Shown: piece by piece, positions 1,873 through 30,905 of the stretch
How the letters are laid out: every line of letters begins with the position of its first letter
Position numbering within the stretch: position 1 is the stretch's first letter
Assembly (NCBI GenBank): GCA_027460535.1
Contig: JAPZAR010000010.1
Coordinates: forward strand, 120,001 to 152,000
DNA: 32,000 nt
Direction of reading: 5' to 3'
DNA from: Candidatus Methanoperedens sp.
GTDB taxonomy: Archaea; Halobacteriota; Methanosarcinia; Methanosarcinales; Methanoperedenaceae
Notes under the pieces: model-generated
Told to the model about the DNA's origin: nothing
Database searches by the model: none
What the model saw: only the letters and a program-made list of their open reading frames with translations
Program-made: the position numbers and the translations under genes

Positions 1873-3171
1873 TTATGGGGACAATCGTTTCCTGTCCCGC
1901 GGGAACAGCACGACCTCGCGGATATTCTCGATATCCAGCATTGTCATGAGAAGCCGTTCCGCTCCCAGGCCCCAGCCCGCATGCGGCGGCATGCCGAACT
2001 TGAATGCCTTGAGATAGAACTCGAACCCGTCGGGGTTCAGCCCCTGATCCGTTATCCTGCTGCGCAGCAGTTCGTACGAATGCACACGCTGTGCTCCCGA
2101 AGAGAGTTCCATGCGCGGATGCATCATATCGAACGCCCTGCAAATCTCAGGCTTATTCTCGTATGGCATTGCGTAGAAGGGCTTTATTTTTGTAGGCCAA
2201 TCTACGATGAAATAATGCTCTCCTATCGCCTTTCCGATGGAGTGCTCGGATTCTGTACTCAGGTCATCACCCCATTCTATTTGTTCACCATTCTCCCGGG
2301 CTATGTTTATTGCCTCTTCATATGTTATACGCCTGAATGGGGTTTTTGGGATTTTCAGCTCCACACCGAGTTTTTCCAGATAATTTGCACCGTTCTTTGC
2401 AACGCCGGTATAAACATAATTGACAAGGTTTTCAAGTATGACCATCACATCCTCGTTATCAAGAAAACTCGCCTCGATATCGATCGAGGTGGCCTCATTC
2501 AAATGCTTTCGCGTATCGTGTTCTTCAGCCCTGAATATGGGGCCAATCTCGAATACGCGGTCAAGTCCGCCGGACATCATAAGCTGCTTGAACAACTGCG
2601 GGCTCTGGTTCAGAAAAGCCTCGCGTTCAAAATACGTTATCGGAAAAAGGGCGGTCCCTCCCTCGGTAGCGGTGGCAACCACCTTGGGGGTCGTAATCTC
2701 AACAAATCCTTCCCGTTCAAGGAACTCCCTTATGCTCTTCAGAATAAGGTGCCTTATCCTGAAGATCGCCTGGGTAGACGCACGCCGCATATCCATGAAC
2801 CTCGCATCCAGCCTTGTATCAAGATCGGCATCCACTTTACCCGTGGTGTCCATGGGCAGCGGTGAATCCGCTTTACCAAGTACCTTCACATCGGTCGGGA
2901 CAAGTTCATACCCATTAGGTGCCTTTGCCTCTTTTTTGACATTTCCAGTGACAGCAACCACCGACTCGCGGGAGATGTTCCGTACGATTTCTAAAACGTT
3001 CTTGTCTATGGTTTTCTTGAATAATGTGACCTGTACAAGCCCTTCCCTGTCCCTTACTACCAGAAAAGTGATCCCGCCAAGATCGCGTATCTCATGCGCC
3101 CAGCCGCAAATAGTGACTGTTCTTCCGTTCATTTCTGGTGTTATCTGAGTTGAGTAATGAGTTCTTATCAT
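1873..3171 (-). CDS. aspS: Aspartyl-tRNA synthetase, archaeal type (class IIb)
   Basis: 432 aa with an ATG start. [44 protein letters not shown] forms the OB anticodon-binding fold. Class II motifs are present: [34 protein letters not shown] and the [11 protein letters not shown] end. It is colinear with known archaeal AspRS. Confidence 0.95.
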
Positions 3172-4149: not shown

Positions 4150-5430
4150 TCATTTATCTTCATTTTTTCCAAGGTTCTCGGGCGTCTCACCGATCTCAAC
4201 CAGAACTTCTGCCGCCCTCTTCCTTACTGCAACGTCTCCTCCCTTCAGAGCCTTGATCAAGGGCCCAACCACCGGTTCTCCTATTTTCACCAGGGCTGCG
4301 GCTGCTTCCTCCCTCACATATTCATTCCTGTCTTTCAGGGCCAATATCAATGCTTCAACTGCTGGTTCTCCTATCTTTACCAGAGCCGAAGCCGCATCCT
4401 CCCGTACATATTCATTCCCATCCTTCAAAGCCGCTATCAAAGGTTCTACGGCAGGTTCGCCTATCTTTACAAGAGCTCCTGTCGATCTCCATCTGACATC
4501 CCAGTCCTCATCCTTCAGGGCGGAAATCAAAGGTTCTACCGCAGGTTCTCCTATCCTTACAAGCGCCTCGGCCGCTTCCTCCCGGATATCCGGGAAAATA
4601 TCCCTTAAACAGAGAATGAGCGGTTCCACACTCTTTTTATCTCCAATCTTCCCGAGAGCTTCTACTGCTTTCTTCCGAACTTCAAGGTCACCATCCTTCA
4701 ATGAATGAACAAGAGGTTCTATTGCCCTTTTATTGCCTATTTCCCCAAGAGCTTCTGCTGCTCTCTTTCTGACATACTCATTCCCATCCTTCAAAGCCAT
4801 AATAAGAGATCCCACTGTTCTCTTATCTTCAATTTTTACTAGCGCATCTCCTGCCAAATCCCTTACATACTCGCTCCCATCTCTCAGGGCAGATATCAGG
4901 GGTTCCAACGCCCGTTTATCCCCTATCTTTCCAAGGGCTTCGGCCGCTTCCTCCCTTACATACTCGCTCCCATCCTTTAAGACAGATATCAGGGGCTCTA
5001 CTGCTCTTTTATCCCCTATCTTCCCGAGAGCTTTTGACGCTTCCTCCCTGACATACTCGCTTTCATCTTTCAGGGCTGCGATCAGAGGTTCAACTGCTCT
5101 TTTATCACCTATGCTTCCAAGGGCCTCTACCGCTCTCCATCGAACATGTTTACTCGTATCTTTTAAAGCCGCAATGAGGGGTTCTACCGCCCTTCTATCC
5201 CCTATCTCCCCCAGAACTTCTGAAGTTCTTTTTCGAATATGGCAATTTTTATCCTTTAATGCCTGACTTAGGGATTCCACTGCTCTTTTGTCGCCAATAT
5301 TGCCCAGAGCCCCAACCGCTTTCATTCGAACTTGCTCGTTCTTATTCTTCAGCGCCTCCATAAGTCCTTTTACATCACTTTTGGCCTCCATTCTTTCCAC
5401 ATCATGCTTAAAAAAATCAAGTAATCCCAT
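4150..5430 (-). CDS. HEAT-repeat protein (PBS-lyase HEAT-like repeats), 13 tandem units
   Basis: 426 aa made almost entirely of 30-31-aa units with consensus AVEPLIAALKDxxEYVREEAAEALGKIGDKR. ATG at 5430 has AGGGGTG upstream. Confidence 0.9.
   Translation of the reverse strand: MGLLDFFKHDVERMEAKSDVKGLMEALKNKNEQVRMKAVGALGNIGDKRAVESLSQALKDKNCHIRKRTSEVLGEIGDRRAVEPLIAALKDTSKHVRWRAVEALGSIGDKRAVEPLIAALKDESEYVREEASKALGKIGDKRAVEPLISVLKDGSEYVREEAAEALGKIGDKRALEPLISALRDGSEYVRDLAGDALVKIEDKRTVGSLIMALKDGNEYVRKRAAEALGEIGNKRAIEPLVHSLKDGDLEVRKKAVEALGKIGDKKSVEPLILCLRDIFPDIREEAAEALVRIGEPAVEPLISALKDEDWDVRWRSTGALVKIGEPAVEPLIAALKDGNEYVREDAASALVKIGEPAVEALILALKDRNEYVREEAAAALVKIGEPVVGPLIKALKGGDVAVRKRAAEVLVEIGETPENLGKNEDK
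4185..5373. repeat. Coding tandem repeat, 93-nt then 90-nt period (HEAT units)
   Basis: Thirteen consecutive protein units counted by hand. Units 1-8 end in GDKR/GDRR/GNKR/GDKK (31 aa). Units 9-12 end in GEP (30 aa). Confidence 0.85.
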
Positions 5431-5753: not shown

Positions 5754-6299
5754 ATGGATCCGAAAATTAAAAGCTATCTTCCTTTAATTATCATATTCTT
5801 TGTACTTGGAGTGGTAGCAGGATATTTATTGCATCAACCGGCAACAATAGAAAAACCCATTTATATAAACCAAACTATCGAAACAACAGTCGAAAAGACC
5901 GTAACTGCAACAGCCACACCTGCTTCAACGGCAATAATGACCCCAACACCAACGCTTACCGAAACACCTCAACCTGTTCCTGATTTTACTGTGAAGATCT
6001 GGAACCCGGATACGGATAATCCTACGTACACCATACAGCTGCGGAACCAGAAGGTTGACCCTAACACACTTTCCATAAACACGGGAGATACGGTTCTGAT
6101 CAGGATAACCGATTTTTCAGTGTTCTCTCCAATGGAACTTATCATAAATTCTTCATACACGCAGAACCTCGGCACGAGCGGCGCAGTGGTCGTGACTTTC
6201 AATAATAAGGGGCTATACAGTCTGGACGCGATCATTCCCTCAGGCGATCCTAACGTGTTTCCGCGAATATACGGGCATGGAATGATAACCGTAAATTAG
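5754..6299 (+). CDS. Small membrane-anchored protein with Thr/Pro linker and a possible cupredoxin-like beta domain
   Basis: TM helix SYLPLIIIFFVLGVVAGYLL, linker TATATPASTAIMTPTPTLTETPQP, then a beta-rich domain with SINTGDTVLIRITD ... YGHGMITVN. GAGGG (5741-5745) is better spaced for ATG 5754 than for ATG 5748. The fold assignment is weak. Confidence 0.55.
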   Translation: MDPKIKSYLPLIIIFFVLGVVAGYLLHQPATIEKPIYINQTIETTVEKTVTATATPASTAIMTPTPTLTETPQPVPDFTVKIWNPDTDNPTYTIQLRNQKVDPNTLSINTGDTVLIRITDFSVFSPMELIINSSYTQNLGTSGAVVVTFNNKGLYSLDAIIPSGDPNVFPRIYGHGMITVN

Positions 6300-6982
6300 G
6301 AAAAATATCTCAGTGCACCCAGCGCGTTCACGACCTGCGGTTCAACAGGGATCGTGATTTTTTTCCCGATGATCTCCCTCAGGGCCGAAACCATTCCTTT
6401 ATTTTTTACAGTTCCGCCAATCAGGACGATATGTTCGGTTTCAGGAACCATATATGAAATCCTCCGCGCGAACGCATAATGCATCCCTGCGATCACTTCT
6501 TCTTTTGAGTAGCCCGCTACAAGTTGCGAGATCATCTCTGAAATTGCGAAAACTCCGCACGTGTTATTAATATCAGGGATGCGCTCTGCTTGAAAGTGCA
6601 GCGAACCCAGGTCATCCAGCTCAATTTTAAAATAATTTGCCACGAATTCAAGGAATGCGCCCGTACCTGCGCTGCATTTGTCATTGATCACAAAGTTATT
6701 CCTTTTTATGTCTATGACTTTGGTATCCTGCCCGCCTATATCGACGATTACATCTGCTTCAGGATAATAATGGCGCACGCCGTAAATGGCGGCGGTTATT
6801 TCCGTCACCGATGCTCGATGCGGGACGGAGTTCCTGAAATAACCCGTTGAAACGATTTCGTCTTTATCCATCCCGCTCACAAGGTCCTTCCAGTTGTGCG
6901 TACCCGTTATGGCGTATTTGATATCGCCATTCTCTATCCGGACGATTTTTGCAGTCGTACTTCCCACATCAAGCCCTATCAT
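6296..6982 (-). CDS. BadF/BadG/BcrA/BcrD-type ATPase, HgdC-like activase ([4Fe-4S]-bridged electron-transfer ATPase)
   Basis: MIGLDVGSTTAKIV (phosphate-1), DIGGQDTKVI (phosphate-2), NDKCSAGTGAFLE and NNTCGVFAISE (the two cluster Cys positions of HgdC-type activators), LIGGTVKNKGM (adenosine motif). Confidence 0.85.
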   Translation of the reverse strand: MIGLDVGSTTAKIVRIENGDIKYAITGTHNWKDLVSGMDKDEIVSTGYFRNSVPHRASVTEITAAIYGVRHYYPEADVIVDIGGQDTKVIDIKRNNFVINDKCSAGTGAFLEFVANYFKIELDDLGSLHFQAERIPDINNTCGVFAISEMISQLVAGYSKEEVIAGMHYAFARRISYMVPETEHIVLIGGTVKNKGMVSALREIIGKKITIPVEPQVVNALGALRYFS

Positions 6983-7926
6983 AATTTCTCAAGCATCTCC
7001 CTGAATGCTTCAAGCCGCAGTCTTACCTGTTCCGGGGTATTACCCGGAAGGTCCCCCTGTATGGTCAATACGGGATAGTCCAGTTCTGCTCTTAAAATCT
7101 CATCCTCAAGCACATGATGGCATGCGAACTGGGTGTAATGTACAACTCCATCCACTTTTCTTTTTTCCAGTTCTTTTTGGAGAAAATCTATCCTGAAATC
7201 AAGCGGTCTTGCAAACGTATAATCGCAATAATCGAGCGCAATCTCACCAATATCATTTCCCCCATGCCTTACGAACTCATAGGGAAGTTCATCAAAAACG
7301 ATGGAAATACCAAGTGTTTCTGCAATTTCATGAAAATCATGGTATATCGGGGGCACTCCCAGCAGTGCCACCCGGTTATTTTGCTGGATTGTTGTTTTGT
7401 CCGCCGATTCGATAACTCTTCTAAACTTATTTAGATCACCTGAAAGGTCGCTAAAAGAAATCAAGATGTTAAAAGCGTCTTTTGATGCGATCTTTCCCCT
7501 GCATCTTTTCGAATCGATCTCTTTCCCCAGTTTCTTAAGTCCTGCAATATCTTTTAATTTTTCGGGAGACTCCATGCCTCCAAGAAACCCTGTAAGCCTG
7601 TTCAATTGCGATTCCATGAATACGGGATCACCGTCGAACGGGTAGAAGAAAAAGTGCGTCGGTATTCCGCTCATCGCCACTTTCTGACCGTCCACAAGGG
7701 CATTATGGCAGTCACCTCCTGCCACCACTATAAGGGAGTCAATAGCGGTCTCTCTATTGACCAGCATCTCTTTCCATATCGCTGTCCATGCGCACAACTT
7801 GTTTTTCGGGTGTTTTCTGGATTCTGGAATGACATTATTGACATCCAGCGGTTCGTTGCCGGATGCAAATATCAATTCAGGAGGAACAAGTGCGGTTATT
7901 CCGATTTTTGGCACATGCATCCCCAT
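6979..7926 (-). CDS. 2-hydroxyacyl-CoA dehydratase (HgdB/D-component) family protein, short form
   Basis: 315 aa with IGITALVPPELIFASG, VVAGGDCHNAL and YTQFACHHVLED, typical of the HGD-D family. The stop overlaps the activase ATG (ATGA at 6979-6982), indicating an operon. Confidence 0.75.
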   Translation of the reverse strand: MGMHVPKIGITALVPPELIFASGNEPLDVNNVIPESRKHPKNKLCAWTAIWKEMLVNRETAIDSLIVVAGGDCHNALVDGQKVAMSGIPTHFFFYPFDGDPVFMESQLNRLTGFLGGMESPEKLKDIAGLKKLGKEIDSKRCRGKIASKDAFNILISFSDLSGDLNKFRRVIESADKTTIQQNNRVALLGVPPIYHDFHEIAETLGISIVFDELPYEFVRHGGNDIGEIALDYCDYTFARPLDFRIDFLQKELEKRKVDGVVHYTQFACHHVLEDEILRAELDYPVLTIQGDLPGNTPEQVRLRLEAFREMLEKL

Positions 7927-8060
7927 TGTATACAGGTATTTATTCCTTTGTATTAAATATCTTTATAATGTGGCGAAAGATTTAGCGTGTGGCATTCTTT
8001 TTGACATATCGTGTGGGCAGACTCCATCCAGATATGATGTGCATGTATTTTTAAGATTTA

Positions 8061-8078
8061 TACATAAAATATATAATT
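8061..8078 (+). promoter_or_regulatory. TATA-like box (tacataaaatatataatt) about 29 nt upstream of ATG 8102
   Basis: AT-rich box at a spacing compatible with a leaderless or short-leader archaeal transcript. Confidence 0.3.
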
Positions 8079-8101
8079 ACTCTTGTACAATTAGTATTGC
8101 C

Positions 8102-8425
8102 ATGGAAGATCAGATATATTCAGACCCTGTCCATAATCTGAATTGCAGGCTGCGTTTTACCTGCGGTGCGATGCATTGCTCAGGAGGATTCTTAAACGCA
8201 GAATTTTCAAACCCGGATCATCCCTCGTGCTATATCGAGAAGTTCAAACGCTATCAGCCGGAGAATGAGCTATGGTACAATAAAAGCTGGGAGGAGGTCA
8301 ACAGGATCACCTGGAGAGAAGTCCTTGGTCTCCAAGAATCCTGGATATATGCTCTGCTTCTCATTATAATTATTGTTTTTATATTTATGGTAATGATATT
8401 AATAAAATTATTATTCAAGTTTTAA
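8102..8425 (+). CDS. Hypothetical small Cys-containing tail-anchored membrane protein (107 aa)
   Basis: [29 protein letters not shown]...C... followed by the C-terminal helix [25 protein letters not shown]. This is the ATG-initiated part of track ORF 7757..8425. A TATA-like box lies upstream. No family recognised. Confidence 0.3.
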
Positions 8426-9372
8426 CTAATATTATTGATTTCCTGCCTTAATTCCCCAAGTGTTGATTTGCGCTCAGCGAACGCATTATGCCGGTGGATA
8501 CTTTCCTCGTTGATCTGCTTTATGGTGATGATCGAATCGTCCGGTAAATTTTGGAATTCCATTACGACCTTTTGCGCCATCGTGCGCACGCAATCTTCCA
8601 CGAATTTGGGGTTCTTATGTGACCGTTCCACGATCGCGGCCTCATCTGACCTCTTTAATAGTTCAAACATCTGGGAACTCATTGAGTTCTCTATTATATT
8701 GATGATTTTTTCCAGGGAGACAAAGTTGCTGTCATGAACTTCGATTGAAATAATTCCCCGCCCTCTCTGGTTGTGCGTGGGCATGGGTACTCGGGCCAGA
8801 AACTTTTTGATGATCTCGCCTTCCACACCTAGAGACCTTAATTCATTCTTTGCTTTATCCCGCATGATTTCCTGGGCGCAGGGGCATGCAGTAATGCCAA
8901 GAACTTCGGCACCCACCAGTTTTCTTATAGTCAGGTTTTCGCCCCTGGTCGCTTTGGATTCCGCGAAAATATTCACCACTTCCTGACATTTTATTTTCGT
9001 GGCGGGGGTTTCTCTCTTTATGACATATTCACTTCTCATCCTGACCTCGGCGTTAAGTGCATATTCATGCCGGTCAATAAGCCTCTTTGCAACTTCGCCG
9101 CATAAGTCCTCTATCTCATAAACCGGCGCTGCGATCATTTCTTCAAGCACTGCATCTATCGCCTCAAAATTCCTGGATAGATTGGCGCCTTTGCGGTCGG
9201 AGGGTAAGTCAACAAAAATATCGAAGGTTGATACAAGCACGATAGGACGTTTATCCTTCCGTGCTACTTCAACGAGTTTCTTCACATCCGTTACCCCAAC
9301 CCTTGTCAGAGTGAGGGGGATCTCGGGCCGATTTGCCTGGATATCGGGAAGATGTATGACGGGAAGTTCCAT
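8422..9372 (-). CDS. mptA: GTP cyclohydrolase MptA (FolE2/type IB family; first step of methanopterin/folate-type pterin synthesis)
   Basis: 316 aa with [42 protein letters not shown] and HNQRGRG, colinear with the archaeal MptA/FolE2 family. Confidence 0.9.
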
Positions 9373-21161: not shown

Positions 21162-21233
21162 GCCAAGGTGGCGGAGAGGCTACGCAATCGCCTGCAGAGC
21201 GATTCCATTCCGGTTCGAGTCCGGACCTTGGCT
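21162..21233 (+). tRNA. tRNA-Cys (anticodon GCA), 72 nt, no intron, CCA not encoded
   Basis: Hand-folded cloverleaf. Acceptor GCCAAGG/CCTTGGC; D arm GCGG-AGAGGCT-ACGC; anticodon arm ATCGC-CTGCAGA-GCGAT; variable TCCAT; T arm TCCGG-TTCGAGT-CCGGA; discriminator T. A T5 run at 21245-21249 follows. Confidence 0.9.
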
Positions 21234-24568: not shown

Positions 24569-25818
24569 AAACCAAAATATTGGAGCAAAGTATAGGACTC
24601 ACTATATTGATAATCTTCCTGTCGATAATAATCGGCCCTGTTTTAGGGGCACCCATCATGGGAGCGCAGGGAAGCAAAATTCAGGCAAATTTCATGAGCC
24701 AGGATCCCGACCCTGCAGATGCCGGGAAGGATCTGGATTTAAGATGGCAGGTTGTCAATACCCTTACAAGTCCAGCGGAGAGTCTGAAATTCCATCTTGA
24801 TGCCAATTATCCTTTTTTATTTGAAGCAGGGGATAGTCCTGATCAGGACCTTGGAGCATCGGCAGGGACGAACGACAACCAAATTTTCTATGTTCTCCAC
24901 TACAAACTCAGGGTGGCTGATAATGCCATCAAGGGAACTTATAATGTAACGCTGAGCTGGGACACAGGACAAGGCTGGACTAAGAAGGATTTCCCGATAT
25001 ACATCGACCCTAAAAGGGCGGATTTCGTAGTCGGAGCGCTTGTCACATCCCCTGAGAAGCTCATAGCAGATACGATGCAGGCAAAGCTGTCGGTGGATAT
25101 TAACAACATCGGGAAAGGCAATGCCGAGAATGTAAAAGCAAAACTTTTCCTGCCTCCGGGTTTCAATTCCAGTTACAGTTATTCGGACGAGGATAGCCTT
25201 GGCATAATTACAGAAGGTGGGAGTAAAACGGCAACCTTCTACGCTGACGTTGATGAAAATATCAAGGAAGGGGACTATAATGCCAGACTTGAAGTCACAT
25301 ATAAGGATGAAAATGATGAGAACAATTCATACAGGACAAAGACCCTTGACCTTGACATACCCATCAAGCCAGCCCCGTATCTAATCGTGGAATCTGTGAA
25401 AACAGTTCCGGAAAACCTGACATCCGGAAATAAAGCCGAGGTTCATATCAGGGTCAAAAATACCGGGAATAAAAAAGCGGAATCAGTGTCTTTGCGTATA
25501 TTCCAGGATGCCTCCCAGCCCTTCGTATTCGAAGGAAAATCGGATTTCGTGGGAAAACTTGAGCCGGGTGAAAGCGGCGAAGCCGTGCTAAGATTCACCG
25601 TCGATGGAACTGCGGTGGCAAAGACGTATCTCGTTGATACGGAATTAAGAGGGATTGATGAAACAAACGAAGTGGTGATATTCAGCCGCACACTGCCGCT
25701 GACAGTTGTTCCTGGACCGAAAAGTTCACCGTTAAGCTCTGCTGGCATGCTGGTCGGTTTTGTGGTTATTGGTGCTGTAGTGGCGACTTATTATGTGAAA
25801 AGTAAAAAGAGTCTATAA
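24565..25818 (+). CDS. COG1361-type surface (S-layer-domain/CARDB-like) protein with C-terminal TM anchor
   Basis: N-terminal signal/anchor, repeated beta-sandwich-like segments ([48 protein letters not shown]) and the C-terminal helix [18 protein letters not shown] followed by KSKK. ATGA overlap with the exporter gene. Confidence 0.7.
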
Positions 25819-27411
25819 TCCCAGCTCAAATCCAATTATTGGATGTTCAAGCCCGAAGTTCGAGATCACTCCGGGGTGGATCTCCCCGAACACCCCGGCG
25901 TTCTTACCTTTTATAATTATATCTGCGCGTCTTCCCTCTATGAATGCCGGATCATTGGACTCCGCAACCTCATAATCGATGCGCCTTTCCCTCATCACAG
26001 CATCAACTGCCGCCTGGATCTCGGAAAAATTCGCCTGCGGGTGGATGGCAACGCCGCCGAGATGCTGCTCAGTCTTACAATGCACAACCACCTCGCCCAC
26101 CTCAAATATACGCTGCGGAAGTTCACGGTGTCTGTTTATTGAAAGTATCTCAAGAAGGTTGGGCAGGATAGTAGGGCGAACGATGGTATGATCCTCGCTT
26201 ATAGGATAGAGAATGTGCGTGATCCCCTCTGCCTTTCCCCTCCGCATCTTTTCGAACTGCATGTGCTCATTTGTAAGAGTGAAAGGCATGACCTCAAAAT
26301 AACCAAGCCCCACCATTATCTCACGTATCAGATCCTTGAGCCTTGAAACCGGATGGGCTTTGCCTGTTGTCGAAGTCAACGGGAGTTCCGGTTTGATCTT
26401 ATCAAAACCATAAGCTATCGCAATATCTTCAATCAGGTCCCAGTTATGCAGGATATCAGAGCGGTAAGCAGGAACGCGTACTTCGATCGACTTGCCCGAC
26501 GCTTCTGCCCCGTATCTCATCTTTTCAAGACATTGGATAATTTCTTCCTTTGTGAGTTTGAATCCAAGAAGTTCTTCGACTTCCGTACTATTTATTTTCA
26601 TGAGCTTTGTCTCAAGCCGGGGGGTCCGTACATTACCATCAATAAGCACGGATTCAATTCTCCCTCCGCGCTCCGCCAGCGATGCAACCACTATATTCAG
26701 TGCAATACTTACCGAAGGGTCAAGACCAGTGACTTCTATGAACAGGTCCGAAGTCCCTTCTGTCACCTTTGTGAGTTCCCCATTGATTATAGGTGGGAAA
26801 GATAAAACGTTGTCCTCTGCATCGAGGATAAGGGGATATTTGTCAAATTTTTCAAGGATGTTCGCGAATTTGATTCCTTTCGGGTGCTTTTCCAGGATCT
26901 CCCTCATTGTCATTGGGTCGCTAAAGTCAAGTGGTACGAAACTATAATGAGGGTCCTGCGCAATATACCTGAAAGGGGTTTTGATCTTTGCCAGGTCATG
27001 CACGCCTATGGAGACTTTTTTCCGGTTCCTGCCAACTGCCCAGTGGAGCGATTCCTGAAGCGCCATCAGGGATTCAATGCTCCTGGAGTTGAAGCGCATG
27101 CCCCGTACCACGGCGCAGGCGAGGTATGGGCGGATTTTTTCAATCTCTTTGTCTTTTGTTATCTTGATGTCAGACGGCATAACCTTGAATTCCCTGATCC
27201 CTGTCTCCATGCCAAGGAAACCTTTTAGTGCTCGCGCCACTCCTTCTGTACTGTAAAGGTCAGGTCTGTTCGGGAAGAACTCGATATCAACGTGGTCTTC
27301 CTCTATGCGCTCGATATCGCATCCCATCATGGGAATGCGTTCGATCAGGGTATCTTTATCCACTCCAGAAAGTTCTTCAAGGTCATCATAATACAGCGTA
27401 ATAACAGGCAT
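25813..27411 (-). CDS. pheT: Phenylalanyl-tRNA synthetase beta subunit, archaeal type
   Basis: 532 aa. [16 protein letters not shown]...[45 protein letters not shown] is colinear with archaeal PheT. Confidence 0.95.
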
Positions 27412-27521: not shown

Positions 27522-28688
27522 CTATTTTTTCTCTGCCTTCTCTTTATGTACTTTATTTCTCAGGCTTCTGTATACCGTTATAATCGTCACCAGAGACCCT
27601 ATTGTCGTCCCTATGATCACAAGAGGCTTGGCGTAGGTGTCAAGCCACTCGCTTACTGTTTTCTCTTTCACATAGATATTTAACGGCTCAGAATATTTCG
27701 TATAATTGTTAAAATTCACATCTTTGTAATCCGCTTTTGCGGCATCGAACGAGCATAAACCCGGCGAATTCAGGTTCACGATGTAGGTAATGACCTTTTG
27801 TTCATCGGGCTGCAGATCGCCACTCCAGTTGTTGTTACCCTGAGAAACTGCGGCGCATGCTGGTATCGGATCTGTCAGAGAAATGTTTATTGCCTCTGAT
27901 GAACCATCATTTTTCACTTTCAGGGTTATAACTGCACCTTCATCCACCTGGGCTGTAGATTTATCAACGTTCTTTTCTATGGTCAGGTGTGGTTCATGCA
28001 TGGGTTTTGAAGAAACAAGAACCCTGACCTCATCGGAAAACTTTGAAAACTTATTCCCCGCGGAATCAGCAAAGGTTATTCGGGAAGGGTTAAATATGCA
28101 TAATCCGGCTTTCGTAGCGCTGACCTCATAATCCAGTATCCTGCTCTCACTGCTTTCCAGTTCGCCGGACCATGACATTGTTCCATTCACGAGCACGGCA
28201 CAGTCAGGTAGAGAGTCATTCAGATTCACATTGAAAGCTTTGATAGTGCCGCTGTTTTTAATTTTGATTATGATATCTATTTTCTCGTCTGCTGCAATGG
28301 ATGAACTTGACACTTCTTTTGTGATGGTCACATCGGGAGGAGTAATTACGAAAGCTGTGTATCGAGCGATGATATTTGTTTGGTTGCCTGCTGATATACT
28401 TACTGTCTGGTTCTCAGGGCTTTCGTATCCTTCCACATTACCGAATGAGACCAGATACACGCCTACCGGATAAGATGCATTGTAGTAAAGGCCGCTTCCC
28501 ACTACCTGGTTATCTAAATAGATTGCTCCATCTACCGGTATGGTTATTATTTTCAAAAAGCCCGACGCATTGACCTGCGTTATAGGGAATGTGTTATTGT
28601 CTGTAACTGTTAAATTATTCTCGGCAGAAGCTATCGATAACACAGATAATAAAATCAAAAAAATCAGACTCGCCTTTAGGTAGACCAC
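27522..28688 (-). CDS. Secreted, C-terminally anchored surface protein: PEGA-like domain plus two DUF11/CARDB-like repeats
   Basis: GTG start. Signal peptide MVYLKASLIFLILLSVLSIASA, PEGA-like ITIPVDGAIYLDNQVVG...GVYLVSFGNVEGY, two paralogous ~105-aa repeats each with two Cys, about a dozen N-x-S/T sequons, and a terminal TM plus basic tail. Confidence 0.7.
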   Translation of the reverse strand: MVYLKASLIFLILLSVLSIASAENNLTVTDNNTFPITQVNASGFLKIITIPVDGAIYLDNQVVGSGLYYNASYPVGVYLVSFGNVEGYESPENQTVSISAGNQTNIIARYTAFVITPPDVTITKEVSSSSIAADEKIDIIIKIKNSGTIKAFNVNLNDSLPDCAVLVNGTMSWSGELESSESRILDYEVSATKAGLCIFNPSRITFADSAGNKFSKFSDEVRVLVSSKPMHEPHLTIEKNVDKSTAQVDEGAVITLKVKNDGSSEAINISLTDPIPACAAVSQGNNNWSGDLQPDEQKVITYIVNLNSPGLCSFDAAKADYKDVNFNNYTKYSEPLNIYVKEKTVSEWLDTYAKPLVIIGTTIGSLVTIITVYRSLRNKVHKEKAEKK

Positions 28689-28791: not shown

Positions 28792-28989
28792 TCACTTCAT
28801 ATCAAACTTTTCGAACCGCTCTTTCTTTGCCCTGCATATCGGACAAAGGTCAGGGGGCTCTTCCCGCGCGCAGAGATATCCGCATACGGTGCACCTGTAA
28901 ACTTCGGTCATTTCTTTTCCTCCTGCTCCTTTTTGTTCTAAAATGCTTGGATAACCTTTCTCATAATACTCCTGCGAGCGCCGCTCCAT
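28792..28989 (-). CDS. Free-standing rubredoxin-like small protein, a duplicate of the FDR C-terminal module (possibly a gene remnant)
   Basis: 65 aa, MERRSQEYYEKGYPSILEQKGAGGKEMTEVYRCTVCGYLCAREEPPDLCPICRAKKERFEKFDMK. 55 of 64 aligned residues are identical to the C-terminus of the 30408..30905 product. Both CxxC pairs are intact. AGGA lies 6 nt upstream of the ATG. Confidence 0.5.
   Translation of the reverse strand: MERRSQEYYEKGYPSILEQKGAGGKEMTEVYRCTVCGYLCAREEPPDLCPICRAKKERFEKFDMK
28795..28987. repeat. Direct repeat copy A (pairs with 30411-30603)
   Basis: Hand alignment at a constant offset of 1616 nt gives 19 mismatches in 193 positions, no indels, and a perfect 85-nt block at 28823-28907. 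Confidence 0.9.
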
Positions 28990-29042
28990 GACATATCCTT
29001 GCTTCCTGATAATGTATTCTTCTAACTCCTAAATCAAATCTT

Positions 29043-29474
29043 CTATGATGCCAATACAATTACATCAATTTCACTTTTCAAGCGTTCAAAAGCTGAATCT
29101 GTAGTTACTATCAGTGCTTCTTCTCGTTTTGCAATTGCTGCCAATAATAAATCAGCTGCCCCGAGTCCCCCGTATCTACTCCCAATTTCTATGGCTTGCC
29201 TGTGTATTTCTTCGTTTTCGTAGATTACCTGCCAGGATGATTTAAGAATCATTTCCAAAACATTAAAAGCCACTCCAATACCTTCATTCTTGGCAATCCA
29301 TACAAGATGCTCGGTCAGGATTACACGCGGAATCGATAGCTGCGTTCCAGCTTCGACGTCTGAAAAACATTTCTTAATTGTTTGGATGGTAGGATGATAT
29401 GAAATCTTCTGTATGGCAGGGTCGTTGATGTTCCGCCATATCTGATAGATATTGGTGTCAAAAGCGTACTTCAT
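29043..29474 (-). CDS. vapC: PIN-domain toxin VapC
   Basis: MKYAFDTNIY carries the N-terminal acidic DTN motif, and IVTTDSAFERL is the C-terminal PIN motif. 143 aa. The ATG overlaps the vapB stop (29471-29474). Confidence 0.85.
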   Translation of the reverse strand: MKYAFDTNIYQIWRNINDPAIQKISYHPTIQTIKKCFSDVEAGTQLSIPRVILTEHLVWIAKNEGIGVAFNVLEMILKSSWQVIYENEEIHRQAIEIGSRYGGLGAADLLLAAIAKREEALIVTTDSAFERLKSEIDVIVLAS

Positions 29475-29734
29475 TCCTCCCCCGGCATATCCTTTTTGCC
29501 TGCTTTGTCGATGTTCCGCTCAAATATCAGGGATTTTTTGAGCGTACCTTTTGTCACTTTTTCAAGCTGAAGATTGAAAACGCTTGTTTTTTGTTTGGTA
29601 AGTATAAGAGTGTGATTTTTTACCCCAAGGATTAACTTATCATGAGGATGTATGCCGATTTCTTCACGGATTTTCTCAGGTATTAATATCCTTCCATTGG
29701 CATCTACCTCGGCAATTTCGACTTCGGAACTCAT
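29471..29734 (-). CDS. vapB: AbrB/SpoVT-type antitoxin VapB
   Basis: EVDANGRILIPEKIREEIGIHPHDKLILGV is a swapped-hairpin AbrB-like motif. I prefer ATG 29734 (87 aa) because a TATA-like box lies inside the longer track ORF. Confidence 0.8.
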   Translation of the reverse strand: MSSEVEIAEVDANGRILIPEKIREEIGIHPHDKLILGVKNHTLILTKQKTSVFNLQLEKVTKGTLKKSLIFERNIDKAGKKDMPGEE

Positions 29735-29758
29735 ATTATGGATATTATGACTGGCGGG

Positions 29759-29772
29759 TATATAAATAAATG
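29759..29772 (-). promoter_or_regulatory. TATA-like box (minus strand TTTATTTATATA) about 30 nt upstream of vapB ATG 29734
   Basis: The spacing implies a leaderless or very short-leader vapBC transcript. Confidence 0.4.
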
Positions 29773-29921
29773 GTGCAGTCGGCATTATCTCTGGATAAGA
29801 TAATGCTGCTGAACATCGGCGCCGCCTGTGAGGTGATGGGAGGGTGGGTTTTAGAAGAGGTCTGTTGCAGGTTCTAATCTTTGGTTATAAGTCGCCAGAT
29901 TATCTTTTAAGATGATGGGAA

Positions 29922-30332
29922 TCAAGGCGGTGTGATATAAACAAAACCTCCACGTACTTTTTTAACTGGCGTTCCATCAAGTTTTTCGAAATCTCCAATC
30001 TCTCGAGGAGTTCTCAACCTTTCGAATTTAGATATTTTAATCCAGGTAGAACTTGGATCATGTTTCCCACCATCTGAAAAATATCCATTAAAGCACTGTT
30101 GCCTGAAAGGAGGAATAAATTGATGTTCATTTTTCATTTCTTTTAATCTATCCCTGCTTATCACCCACTCCACTTTGCACTTCCACTCGACATTCCCAGA
30201 AATGGTGGTATAAACATACCCATCAAAAGGTCCTTTCAACTCTGTTCTTTTTGCCGCAGAATCCCAATAAACAGCGCCCTTTTTTCTTAGGAACCTTAGA
30301 TTTTCTTCTACATCAGCCTCTTCACGAGGCAT
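29922..30332 (-). CDS. Hypothetical protein, 136 aa, no family recognised
   Basis: ATG-initiated ORF between the repeat copies. It contains P35-F-D37 ... E49-W-K51, a loosely PD-(D/E)xK-like spacing, and a basic C-terminal segment KVRGGFVYITPP. Confidence 0.55.
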   Translation of the reverse strand: MPREEADVEENLRFLRKKGAVYWDSAAKRTELKGPFDGYVYTTISGNVEWKCKVEWVISRDRLKEMKNEHQFIPPFRQQCFNGYFSDGGKHDPSSTWIKISKFERLRTPREIGDFEKLDGTPVKKVRGGFVYITPP

Positions 30333-30407
30333 ACCTGGCCCAGCCTCATTTAGATTGGCTGGCCATAAAATCGCATTTGTATATCTTCCCCCTTCAATTT
30401 ATGCACA

Positions 30408-30905
30408 TTACGTCATCTCAAACTTTTCGAACCTCTCCTTCTTTGCCCTGCATATCGGACAAAGGTCAGGGGGCTCTTCCCGCGCGCAGAGATATCCGCA
30501 TACGGTGCACCTGTAAACTTCGGCCATTTCATTTCCTCCTGCTCCTTCTTGTTCTGCCATAGCCGGATAGCCTTTCTCATAATATTCCTGCGGCCTCCGC
30601 TCCGGAATGGGATTGCGCGGCTTCTTACCTGCGATCCAGTCATCGCTCACATAAAGAACGCACAGGCAGCAGCCATACTCCACGATATCGGCATCGCGGT
30701 AGTTGCACGGGCAGACGATATCCATATCATCTGCAAGGACACCGCCTGCCATCCTGCAGGGACACGATGGGTATCCGTACCTGTGGATATTCTCCCACAG
30801 GCCATCGAGGACATCATCAAGTTCCTGCTGGACAGGGTTGAACTGGTAGCCCTCCTCTTCCGCGATCTTTTTCATTTCATCGAACATGTCATCAATATTT
30901 CTCAT
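30408..30905 (-). CDS. FTR-like ferredoxin:disulfide reductase (FTR catalytic-subunit domain fused to C-terminal rubredoxin), FDR type
   Basis: SCPCRMAGGV...VCPCNYRDADIVEYGCCLCVLYV matches the CPC...CPC...CxC FTRc pattern. The C-terminal YRCTVCGYLC...CPICRAKKE is rubredoxin-like. The architecture matches the FDR described in Methanosarcina acetivorans. Confidence 0.85.
   Translation of the reverse strand: MRNIDDMFDEMKKIAEEEGYQFNPVQQELDDVLDGLWENIHRYGYPSCPCRMAGGVLADDMDIVCPCNYRDADIVEYGCCLCVLYVSDDWIAGKKPRNPIPERRPQEYYEKGYPAMAEQEGAGGNEMAEVYRCTVCGYLCAREEPPDLCPICRAKKERFEKFEMT
30411..30603. repeat. Direct repeat copy B (pairs with 28795-28987)
   Basis: See copy A. The perfect block is 30439-30523. 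Confidence 0.9.

Follow-up and report, generated by a model that had tools for sequence, protein, structure and literature searches.

The rubredoxin-coding end of an FDR gene as an apparent, recurrent landing site for toxin-antitoxin cassettes in Methanoperedens

Organization of the locus

The stretch of DNA analysed here, called the window in what follows, comprises 32,000 nt of Candidatus Methanoperedens sp. (GenBank assembly GCA_027460535.1, contig JAPZAR010000010.1, positions 120,001 to 152,000) and contains a ferredoxin:disulfide reductase gene, FDR, whose 3' end occurs twice. The gene (30408..30905, minus strand) encodes a protein of 165 aa with a ferredoxin:thioredoxin reductase (FTR) catalytic domain (Pfam FeThRed_B, 9.5e-19) followed by a C-terminal rubredoxin (Rd) module (RUBY_RBDX, 1.3e-13). 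This architecture, with two CxxC pairs, is common to 3,854 homologues, and a glutaredoxin (Grx) gene lies upstream in the window. As judged from its domains, the product is an FTR-like ferredoxin:disulfide reductase with a rubredoxin domain; one source labels it 'ferredoxin:glutaredoxin reductase'. Downstream of FDR stands a cassette of 1.4 kb that encodes orf136, vapB and vapC and nothing else called, and behind it the Rd-coding end of FDR appears for a second time. Comparison with other genomes indicates that small, co-oriented toxin-antitoxin (TA) cassettes have landed repeatedly at this end of the gene in Methanoperedens, apparently without the participation of an integrase.

Two copies of the rubredoxin-coding segment

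A repeat search of the window returned a direct repeat of 194 nt with 90% identity between 28794-28987 and 30410-30603, at an offset of 1616. Counted base by base, 28795-28987 and 30411-30603 differ at 19 of 193 positions and show no indels. Copy B (30411..30603, minus strand) is the Rd-coding 3' end of FDR, which closes with a TAA at 30408-30410. Copy A (28795..28987, minus strand) lies within a free open reading frame (ORF) of 65 codons (28792-28989) that matches Pfam RUBY_RBDX and ends in TGA. The longest perfect run between them in the alignment is 85 nt, corresponding to 28823..28907 in copy A and 30439..30523 in copy B (both on the minus strand), and spans both CxxC pairs (CTVC and CPIC). 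When the 19 mismatches were randomly placed, a run of 85 nt or more arose in only 33 of 200,000 permutations, and the clustering of identity is therefore real. The repeat is present twice in the 32 kb, the cassette once.

These figures agree with an earlier interpretation made from the letters alone (the sequence-only reading): the 193-nt repeat, its 19 mismatches, the lack of indels, the offset and the perfect block were all reproduced by an independent count and by the repeat search. The ORFs and Pfam domains likewise confirm its description of copy B as the 3' end of an intact FTR-rubredoxin fusion and of copy A as a free 65-codon ORF. It had further placed the limits of homology at the stop codons and at an ATG replacing a proline codon in copy A. 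The second limit holds, since codon 1 is ATG in copy A and CCG at the matching place in copy B; the first needs the correction that the two stops are unlike, TGA in copy A and TAA in copy B. An AGGA stands 6 nt ahead of the copy A ATG, and the 65-codon frame is intact.

The same architecture in other Methanoperedens

Searches with copy A and orf136 led to four further Methanoperedens contig lineages (L-numbers denote the compared contig lineages or loci) in which FDR is accompanied by co-oriented TA cassettes with different cargo and by partial copies of the Rd segment extending as far as the stop codon. The array of L061 consists of FDR, remnants of orf157 (the full-length relative of orf136), DUF433 with a DUF5615-like partner and an Rd copy, followed by HicAB. 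In L063 the order is FDR, DUF8426, MNT, PRiA4, DUF433-DUF5615 and an Rd copy. L064, of which L065 is an independent copy, has three gene ends: FDR, an MntA-like gene, an Rd copy, orf157, DUF433-DUF5615 and a further Rd copy. L150 carries FDR, MNT-HEPN and an Rd copy. All listed cassette genes of the five arrays, that of the window included, are on the FDR strand, a feature that on its own is not diagnostic of an integron. The extra Rd copies all reach the stop codon and all retain both CxxC pairs and an in-frame Met, and their 5' extent varies from 126 to ~199 nt.

Several of these arrays preserve traces of earlier arrangements. The junction between the MntA-like gene and copy 2 of L064, a copy of short extent, is a deletion derivative of the MNT-HEPN-Rd type found in L150. 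Directly ahead of the distal Rd copy of L061 lies a C-terminal vapC remnant (VDLLLAAIAKRENAIIVT) of a close homologue of the gene in the window, which implies that a vapC-Rd arrangement like that of the window once existed in L061. The distal Rd copy of L150 (4587-4773), behind MNT-HEPN, has a 5-nt deletion causing a frameshift and carries the substitutions VLRC and ELPDI in the region of the metal site, so that at least some of the displaced gene ends are decaying pseudogenes.

At least 13 other FDR lineages of the Methanoperedens type have a single Rd copy, with no remnant of a second even in sensitive self-searches, and their downstream genes are unrelated housekeeping genes. Across these lineages free Rd copies are never found alone, but only behind cassettes. 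The sequence-only reading had regarded a free rubredoxin gene in relatives lacking vapBC as a sign of old paralogues. Free fragments of this kind do exist in the literal sense, but each stands behind a different TA cassette; the insertion model is thereby generalised rather than refuted.

FDR is the last gene of a block conserved in Methanoperedens that comprises rubrerythrin, CMD, ferritin, DUF2180, a three-gene 2-oxoacid:ferredoxin oxidoreductase (OFOR), glutaredoxin and FDR itself. No gene is conserved on its 3' side, where different genomes have KaiC-like ATPases, a nucleotidyltransferase with LysE, purine or tRNA-synthetase genes, or others. The empty site that the sequence-only reading expected to find by way of pheT was not obtained. 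A pheT-anchored scan of 185,579 species genomes yielded 48 loci, ~40 of them from Methanoperedens or Methanoperedenaceae, and FDR lay within 10 kb of pheT at none of these 48 loci of other genomes, so the comparison was anchored on FDR instead. With a conserved block on the 5' side, nothing conserved on the 3' side and no FDR near pheT elsewhere, the stop codon of FDR is a genus-wide synteny break.

Mosaic ancestry of the repeats

The two copies do not have a uniform history. Over the first 80 nt of the repeat (30524-30603 in copy B) they are 81% identical, with a proportion of synonymous differences (pS) of 0.31, and between genomes the corresponding pS is 0.30-0.42. The same 80 nt of copy A are 89% identical to L146 and L071 and 88% identical to L066 and L068, the range across L146, L071, L066 and L061 being 86-89%. 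At the amino-acid level, this part of copy A (SILEQKGAGGKEM) equals the genus consensus, and copy B (AMAEQEGAGGNEM) has lineage-specific changes. Upstream of the copy A ATG, the 9-mer CAGGAAGCA (29000-29008) is in register with FDR alleles that have a short linker; the resident FDR is of the long-linker class.

The core behaves in the opposite way. Its 85 nt are 100% identical between copies A and B and at most 86% identical to any of 17 other Methanoperedens FDR sequences, and the synonymous difference of the core region is 0.05 within the genome versus 0.45-0.91 between genomes. For all nine array copies compared (from the window, L061, L063 and L064; L150 is outside this matrix), the nearest relative is another copy of the same genome, at 89-96%. 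The DUF433-DUF5615 cassettes common to three of the array genomes are saturated at synonymous sites, with a pS of 0.5-0.8. Amino-acid change is low, copy A and its orthologues differing by a proportion of nonsynonymous differences (pN) of 0.05-0.09.

The fact that the 5' part of copy A is nearer to foreign FDR genes, while the core is identical only within the genome, means that copy A owes its flank to another lineage and that the core was homogenised internally. The 85-nt core is read as a tract of gene conversion or of a crossover. The comparison shows that the incoming DNA brought its own FDR 3'-end fragment from a different Methanoperedens lineage, with an intact FDR, the cassette and copy A as the product. 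The direct repeats are mosaics, in which flanks of differing ancestry surround a tract identical within the genome, as is expected from homology-driven insertion with conversion.

The cassette

The gene order and domains of vapB and vapC fit a putative type II VapBC toxin-antitoxin system, with a PIN toxin encoded after a small antitoxin of the AbrB/MazE type and the two genes overlapping by 4 nt (29471-29474). The antitoxin gene vapB (29471..29734, minus strand; 87 aa) is of the AbrB/SpoVT-MazE type (Pfam MazE_antitoxin 1.2e-5, NCBIfam AbrB 6.6e-8). An alternative length of 104 aa is less likely than 87 aa (29471-29734), given the 87-aa gene call in three assemblies. The toxin gene vapC (29043..29474, minus strand) encodes 143 aa with a PIN domain (Pfam PIN 6.5e-9). 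A TATA-like sequence, TTTATTTATATA (29759-29770), stands ~25-36 nt ahead of the vapB ATG at 29734, and a hairpin with a perfect 9-bp stem (29782-29806) follows immediately past the junction motif described below. Together they suggest a leaderless vapBC transcript from its own promoter, the hairpin being a possible VapB operator or orf136 terminator.

The third gene, orf136 (29922..30332, minus strand), had been described as an orphan, and this part of the inventory of the cassette has to be revised. It belongs to a conserved family of ~157 aa with 17 homologues, mostly of 140-182 aa; members occur in Methanoperedens and in at least one Methanocomedens. In the window, the loss of 9 nt between 30385 and 30386 took out the ATG-ATG start of the family; the frame is open upstream, and the ORF now starts at the internal Met21. 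The predicted fold is PUA-like (ASCH/YTH/EVE-type): the AlphaFold2 (AF2) model of the family has a pLDDT of 92.4, and its top Foldseek matches are AF2351, ASCH, YTH, the McrB N-terminal domain and VcaM4I, all of them weak (TM 0.4-0.5). There is no Pfam, NCBIfam or PADLOC match to orf136, and NCBIfam and PADLOC scans taken together gave no match to vapC, the DUF433 partner, DUF8426 (weak PADLOC matches only), PRiA4 or p262. The lost start, together with a dN/dS of ~0.7 against a near-identical relative, suggests that orf136 may be decaying in the window.

That near-identity marks a recent exchange. A segment made of orf136 and ~50 nt on each side (29870..30385, minus strand) is 92-98% identical to L064/L065 by sliding identity, whereas the flanking core genes are ~78% identical. 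The pS between orf136 and the orf157 of L064 is 0.08, against 0.72-0.73 for the OFOR beta subunit, Grx and the FTR domain of the same two genomes, and the segment therefore crossed between the lineages long after their split.

The homology to L064 stops at a junction motif (29812..29838, minus strand; sense strand CATCACCTCACAGGCGGCGCCGATGTT, also written GGCGGCGCCGATGTT), which was delimited by alignment with L061, L063, L064, L065 and L146. The motif has 17-27 conserved nt and a single occurrence in the window. It recurs in L064 (~6490-6516), L065 (~640-665), L146 (~8535-8560) and L061 (~5215-5240), and in degenerate form in L063 (~5224). In each case it separates an upstream module (orf157-type or PRiA4) from a downstream TA module, which is vapBC here and DUF433-DUF5615 elsewhere. 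The 8-mer GCGGCGCC is common to the junction motif and to the PERRP codons, which mark the 5' edge of the long Rd repeats. The motif could be a second exchange point, what is left of a deleted Rd copy, a terminator or an operator.

The cassette also stands apart in composition. Its GC content is 40.2%, versus 45.4% in the window and 52% in FDR, which makes it the lowest 1.4-kb stretch, with 0.3% of windows of the same size equally low. At third codon positions the GC content is 30-40% in the cassette genes and 53-64% in neighbouring genes. The discontinuity whose absence the sequence-only reading would have held against an insertion is thus present, and the cassette is indeed AT-richer, although the contrast is smaller than spot counts over short segments had suggested. 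Rfam, tRNA and terminator scans of the region returned nothing relevant.

Proposed mechanism

The explanation considered probable is that recombination within the Rd segment of ~190 nt inserted the 1.4-kb cassette together with a foreign gene-end fragment, and that conversion then homogenised the core. The chromosome would recombine, inside the Rd-coding segment, with a DNA fragment bearing part of an FDR 3' end and the cargo downstream of it. The event would most likely be homologous, in the form of a single Campbell-type crossover with a circular fragment or of some equivalent process anchored by homology, carried out by host recombination proteins rather than a dedicated integrase. The identical core could stem from the crossover heteroduplex or from later gene conversion, a process that is very active in polyploid euryarchaea. 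The same homology would permit swaps of cassettes between lineages, as illustrated by the exchanged orf136. Copy A may be translated as a mini-rubredoxin of 65 aa, and nothing demands that it is. Recombination in the Rd segment accounts for the intact gene, the cargo, the second gene end, the variable 5' edges, the mosaic ancestry and the conversion tract, and the homology of the repeats halts at the stop codon because the sequences downstream are unrelated between lineages.

The sequence-only reading had offered, as the first of two models, a cassette recombined into the 3' end of FDR that left att-like repeats. Its main part is borne out by the four lineages with bracketed TA cassettes, by the single-copy lineages (at least 13) and by the foreign-like 5' part of copy A. 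The term att-like, in its site-specific sense, is not: neither an integrase nor a crossover core common to the copies is evident, and their 5' extents differ. Domain scans found no integrase in the cassette, as that reading had stated, and no integrase or transposase domain in the scanned ORFs of the window or in the gene tables of the arrays (L001, L061, L063, L064, L150), distal flanks included. The 193-nt repeat, which is coding sequence, lacks an attC-like fold, folding no better than shuffled sequences (z = +0.87 and +0.86 on the two strands). A search of IMG/VR yielded nothing related to the Rd copy, vapC or orf136; PLSDB likewise contained no relative of vapC, and no phage relative of the cassette DNA was found. 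An origin from a virus, phage or plasmid was rejected, given the lack of relatives in the IMG/VR, PLSDB and phage collections.

A number of points weigh against homology-driven insertion. No excision product, circle or empty-site variant of the same strain was seen in the assemblies, raw reads being outside the scope. In L146, FDR is directly followed by orf157 without a second Rd copy. Either tail could be the native one, and alternatively vapBC may have come in together with copy A, as a single unit placed behind a resident orf157 at the junction motif. The stop pattern, with TAA in the proximal and TGA in the distal copy (most single-copy FDR genes have TGA), is merely suggestive: as a marker it holds in four arrays and fails in L150, where both stops are TAA, and in five single-copy TAA lineages, so it was set aside as a weak hint. 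The long-form repeats behind unrelated cargos (vapBC, MNT-HEPN) begin near the same PERRP codons, where the junction motif shares GCGGCGCC, and such a common start could hint at a preferred site and hence at a site-specific enzyme. A fixed recombination site at GCGGCGCC is nevertheless unproven, as residual similarity runs upstream of the 8-mer in copy A, with the same probably true of L150, and the starts of other copies lie elsewhere. It is possible that a recombinase acts in trans from outside the 32 kb examined. Finally, where it has been measured, homologous recombination is inefficient over less than 200 nt at ~80-85% identity.

Alternative explanations

Site-specific integration is regarded as unlikely, yet it is the strongest of the competing explanations. 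The cassettes would in that case be integrase-less satellites, or decayed remnants resembling cis-mobilizable elements (CIMEs), with the ~190-nt FDR end as attP, and would be inserted and excised by a recombinase encoded elsewhere, on the chromosome, a plasmid, a Borg or a virus; the arrays would have grown by tandem accretion. The layout matches that of e14 at icd and icdC (PMC13626634) and that of tycheposon arrays with partial tRNA copies (10.1101/2020.12.28.424599). Every copy finishes at the stop codon, the long-form copies share the PERRP start just described, and the junction motif with its 17-27 nt is conserved between modules. Elements with tyrosine integrases do exist in Methanoperedens, the documented integration using a tRNA-Asp site and 14-bp repeats (PMC13444090). 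This explanation is at odds with scans in which neither the window nor any of the five arrays, distal flanks included, showed an integrase domain, and with the lack of viral or plasmid relatives of the Rd segment and its cargo. No short core stands out as the sole identical stretch; the mismatch maps are specific to each array, although conversion could have erased a core. The identical tracts are instead long and genome-specific, as conversion predicts.

Much less probable is a duplication in situ, the second model of the sequence-only reading, in which a local copy of the Rd module became a selected, stand-alone mini-rubredoxin, TA genes entered the spacer later, and conversion keeps the metal site identical. 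The gene-conversion component of this model is supported, with a core that is identical within the genome and no more than 86% identical elsewhere; the origin by duplication of a domain in place is not. In favour of the model, copy A has an ATG, the AGGA 6 nt upstream and the intact 65-codon frame, all extra copies have kept both CxxC pairs and an in-frame Met, and the pN of 0.05-0.09 between copy A and its orthologues is low. Conversion alone, however, would keep frames intact. The first 80 nt of the two copies are as divergent as those of different genomes, with copy A nearer to the FDR of others, and the 9-mer upstream of copy A belongs to a different class of FDR linker. Free copies occur solely behind cassettes, the single-copy lineages (at least 13) having none, their 5' extents vary, and the copy of L150 with its 5-nt frameshift, VLRC and ELPDI appears to be decaying.

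An assembly artefact, in which a repeat would have led to a chimera of two strains or of two loci within a metagenome bin, can be dismissed as extremely improbable: the source is a metagenome-assembled genome (MAG) and the region sits at a synteny break with FDR beside pheT only here, but 3.8 kb are 100% identical in GCA_027460495.1 (MAG contig JAPZAT010000035.1) and in two ENA assemblies from other samples (ERZ27247940, ERZ27247996), the perfect 85-nt block is shorter than the k of 141 suggested by 'k141' contig names, the flanks of each copy are unique, and the same layout with other cargo is found in four unrelated assemblies.

Comparison with known systems

The closest known layout is that of e14 and phage 21 in the icd gene of Escherichia coli, where the insert lies between the functional gene and a partial copy of its 3' end, icdC, the two showing few differences (PMC13626634). 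Recombination between icd and icdC yields a chimeric gene, as that source summarises from Hill et al. 1989. The window and the four other lineages likewise have the intact target gene on one side and the partial 3'-end copy on the far side. The differences are that e14, a prophage of 15 kb, brings its own integrase and has a defined att core, whereas the element in this archaeon is a 1.4-kb TA cassette for which no recombinase was found. In addition, the site in Methanoperedens is reused by varied cargos, with arrays of up to three gene ends and with conversion tracts.

Tycheposons of Prochlorococcus resemble the arrays in that successive insertions push older ones outward, partial copies of the target remain between the cargo, and integrase-less remnants persist (10.1101/2020.12.28.424599). 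Their targets are tRNA genes and they use tyrosine recombinases, in contrast to the coding 3' end of a protein gene and the lack of a detected recombinase here.

A further parallel is provided by units that lack a recombination module of their own, accumulate in tandem at a housekeeping gene's 3' end and are stabilised by TA genes. CIMEs are att-flanked units of this kind, as in the accretion at fda of Streptococcus thermophilus (ICESt1/3). The genomic island SGI1, for its part, targets a site 18 bp from trmE's 3' end (PMC6531882). CIMEs, ICESt1/3 and SGI1 have short att sites (18-27 bp) and a known integrase, whereas the repeat at FDR is a coding sequence of 126-199 nt in which no fixed core is apparent. 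Orphan C-terminal modules downstream of rhs and cdiA genes offer another parallel, in which homologous recombination in the conserved part of the gene brings new downstream DNA and old ends are displaced into an array. There the variable part is the C-terminal toxin domain of the gene itself with its immunity gene; at FDR the gene end is conserved and the cargo lies between the copies.

Integrons are also comparable, having small, co-oriented, TA-rich cassettes with a repeated, recombination-prone unit between them beside a fixed platform, and integron cassette arrays have been reported in Archaea too (PMC9668308). Unlike integrons, the FDR arrays have no IntI-type tyrosine recombinase, their repeat is not an attC hairpin (z = +0.87), and their TA modules have TATA-like promoters of their own.

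Significance

No description of this locus was found in the literature searched. Duplication of a gene end of the e14/icd type is known; what is new is a recurrent and apparently integrase-free landing site for cassettes where the coding sequence of an archaeal housekeeping gene ends. In Methanoperedens, large extrachromosomal elements are well known and the chromosomal movement of small accessory genes is little known. The locus offers a concrete and reused entry point, with states before and after insertion across genomes, a dated recent exchange of orf136 and visible conversion tracts.

A broader proposal can be put forward only tentatively. The end of FDR may serve as an integrase-free platform whose ~190 nt act as a 'homology handle' for the capture, stacking, swapping between Methanoperedens lineages and excision of circular or linear fragments with TA or defence genes by host recombination and conversion, with the junction motif as a second exchange point and the displaced gene ends perhaps expressed as mini-rubredoxins. 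If true, it would amount in function to an integron that lacks IntI and attC. Should homology alone drive the process, cassettes can dock at conserved gene ends without a dedicated recombinase, which bears on the spread of TA and defence genes in polyploid archaea and on the annotation of 'orphan' gene fragments in MAGs. Where short free rubredoxin ORFs stand beside FDR, they probably represent displaced ends of the gene, not genes in their own right. Demonstration of a homology-only mechanism, or of a new recombinase acting in trans, would raise the significance of the finding.

Genomic surroundings of FDR

The distal flank of the insertion site is formed by a gene for a surface protein with DUF11/CARDB-type Pfam domains (27522..28688, minus strand), beyond which lies pheT (25813-27411). 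The order pheT-CARDB-MMPL-MMPL-TrmB is kept in about a dozen of the 48 pheT loci, and among L005-L052 only L030 shares the DUF11 surface gene beside pheT. The adjacency of FDR and pheT, unique to this genome, would imply a larger rearrangement with a breakpoint at or beside the cassette site. Downstream of FDR, the window (6296-9372, ~21 kb away) and L146 (13218-16474, ~5 kb away) share the genes for FolE2 (GTP cyclohydrolase), HGD-D and BcrAD/BadFG, in identical order and orientation. This hints at a large insertion or translocation relative to L146, made up of the region between pheT and Cpn60 and further DNA beyond. The sole tRNA gene found, tRNA-Cys(GCA) at 21162-21233, lies between the Cpn60 and TrmB-like genes, far from the site, with no partial tRNA copies or integrase nearby.

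On the other side of FDR, L053-L055 have an ORF for a 137-aa winged-helix-like protein between glutaredoxin and FDR (7531-7944 in L053), which was rejected on comparison as a homologue of orf136, and L063 has a 50-aa ORF at the same place (2857-3009). The 5' side of FDR is therefore likewise not wholly fixed. An internally deleted FDR of 113 aa, in which the first 59 residues of FTR are fused to the rubredoxin part, is present in L151 (2088-2429) and L152 (381-722), both from Logan (SRR30681578/80). It lies outside the Grx-FDR locus, beside an alcohol dehydrogenase, and is another sign of the relocation of FDR fragments.

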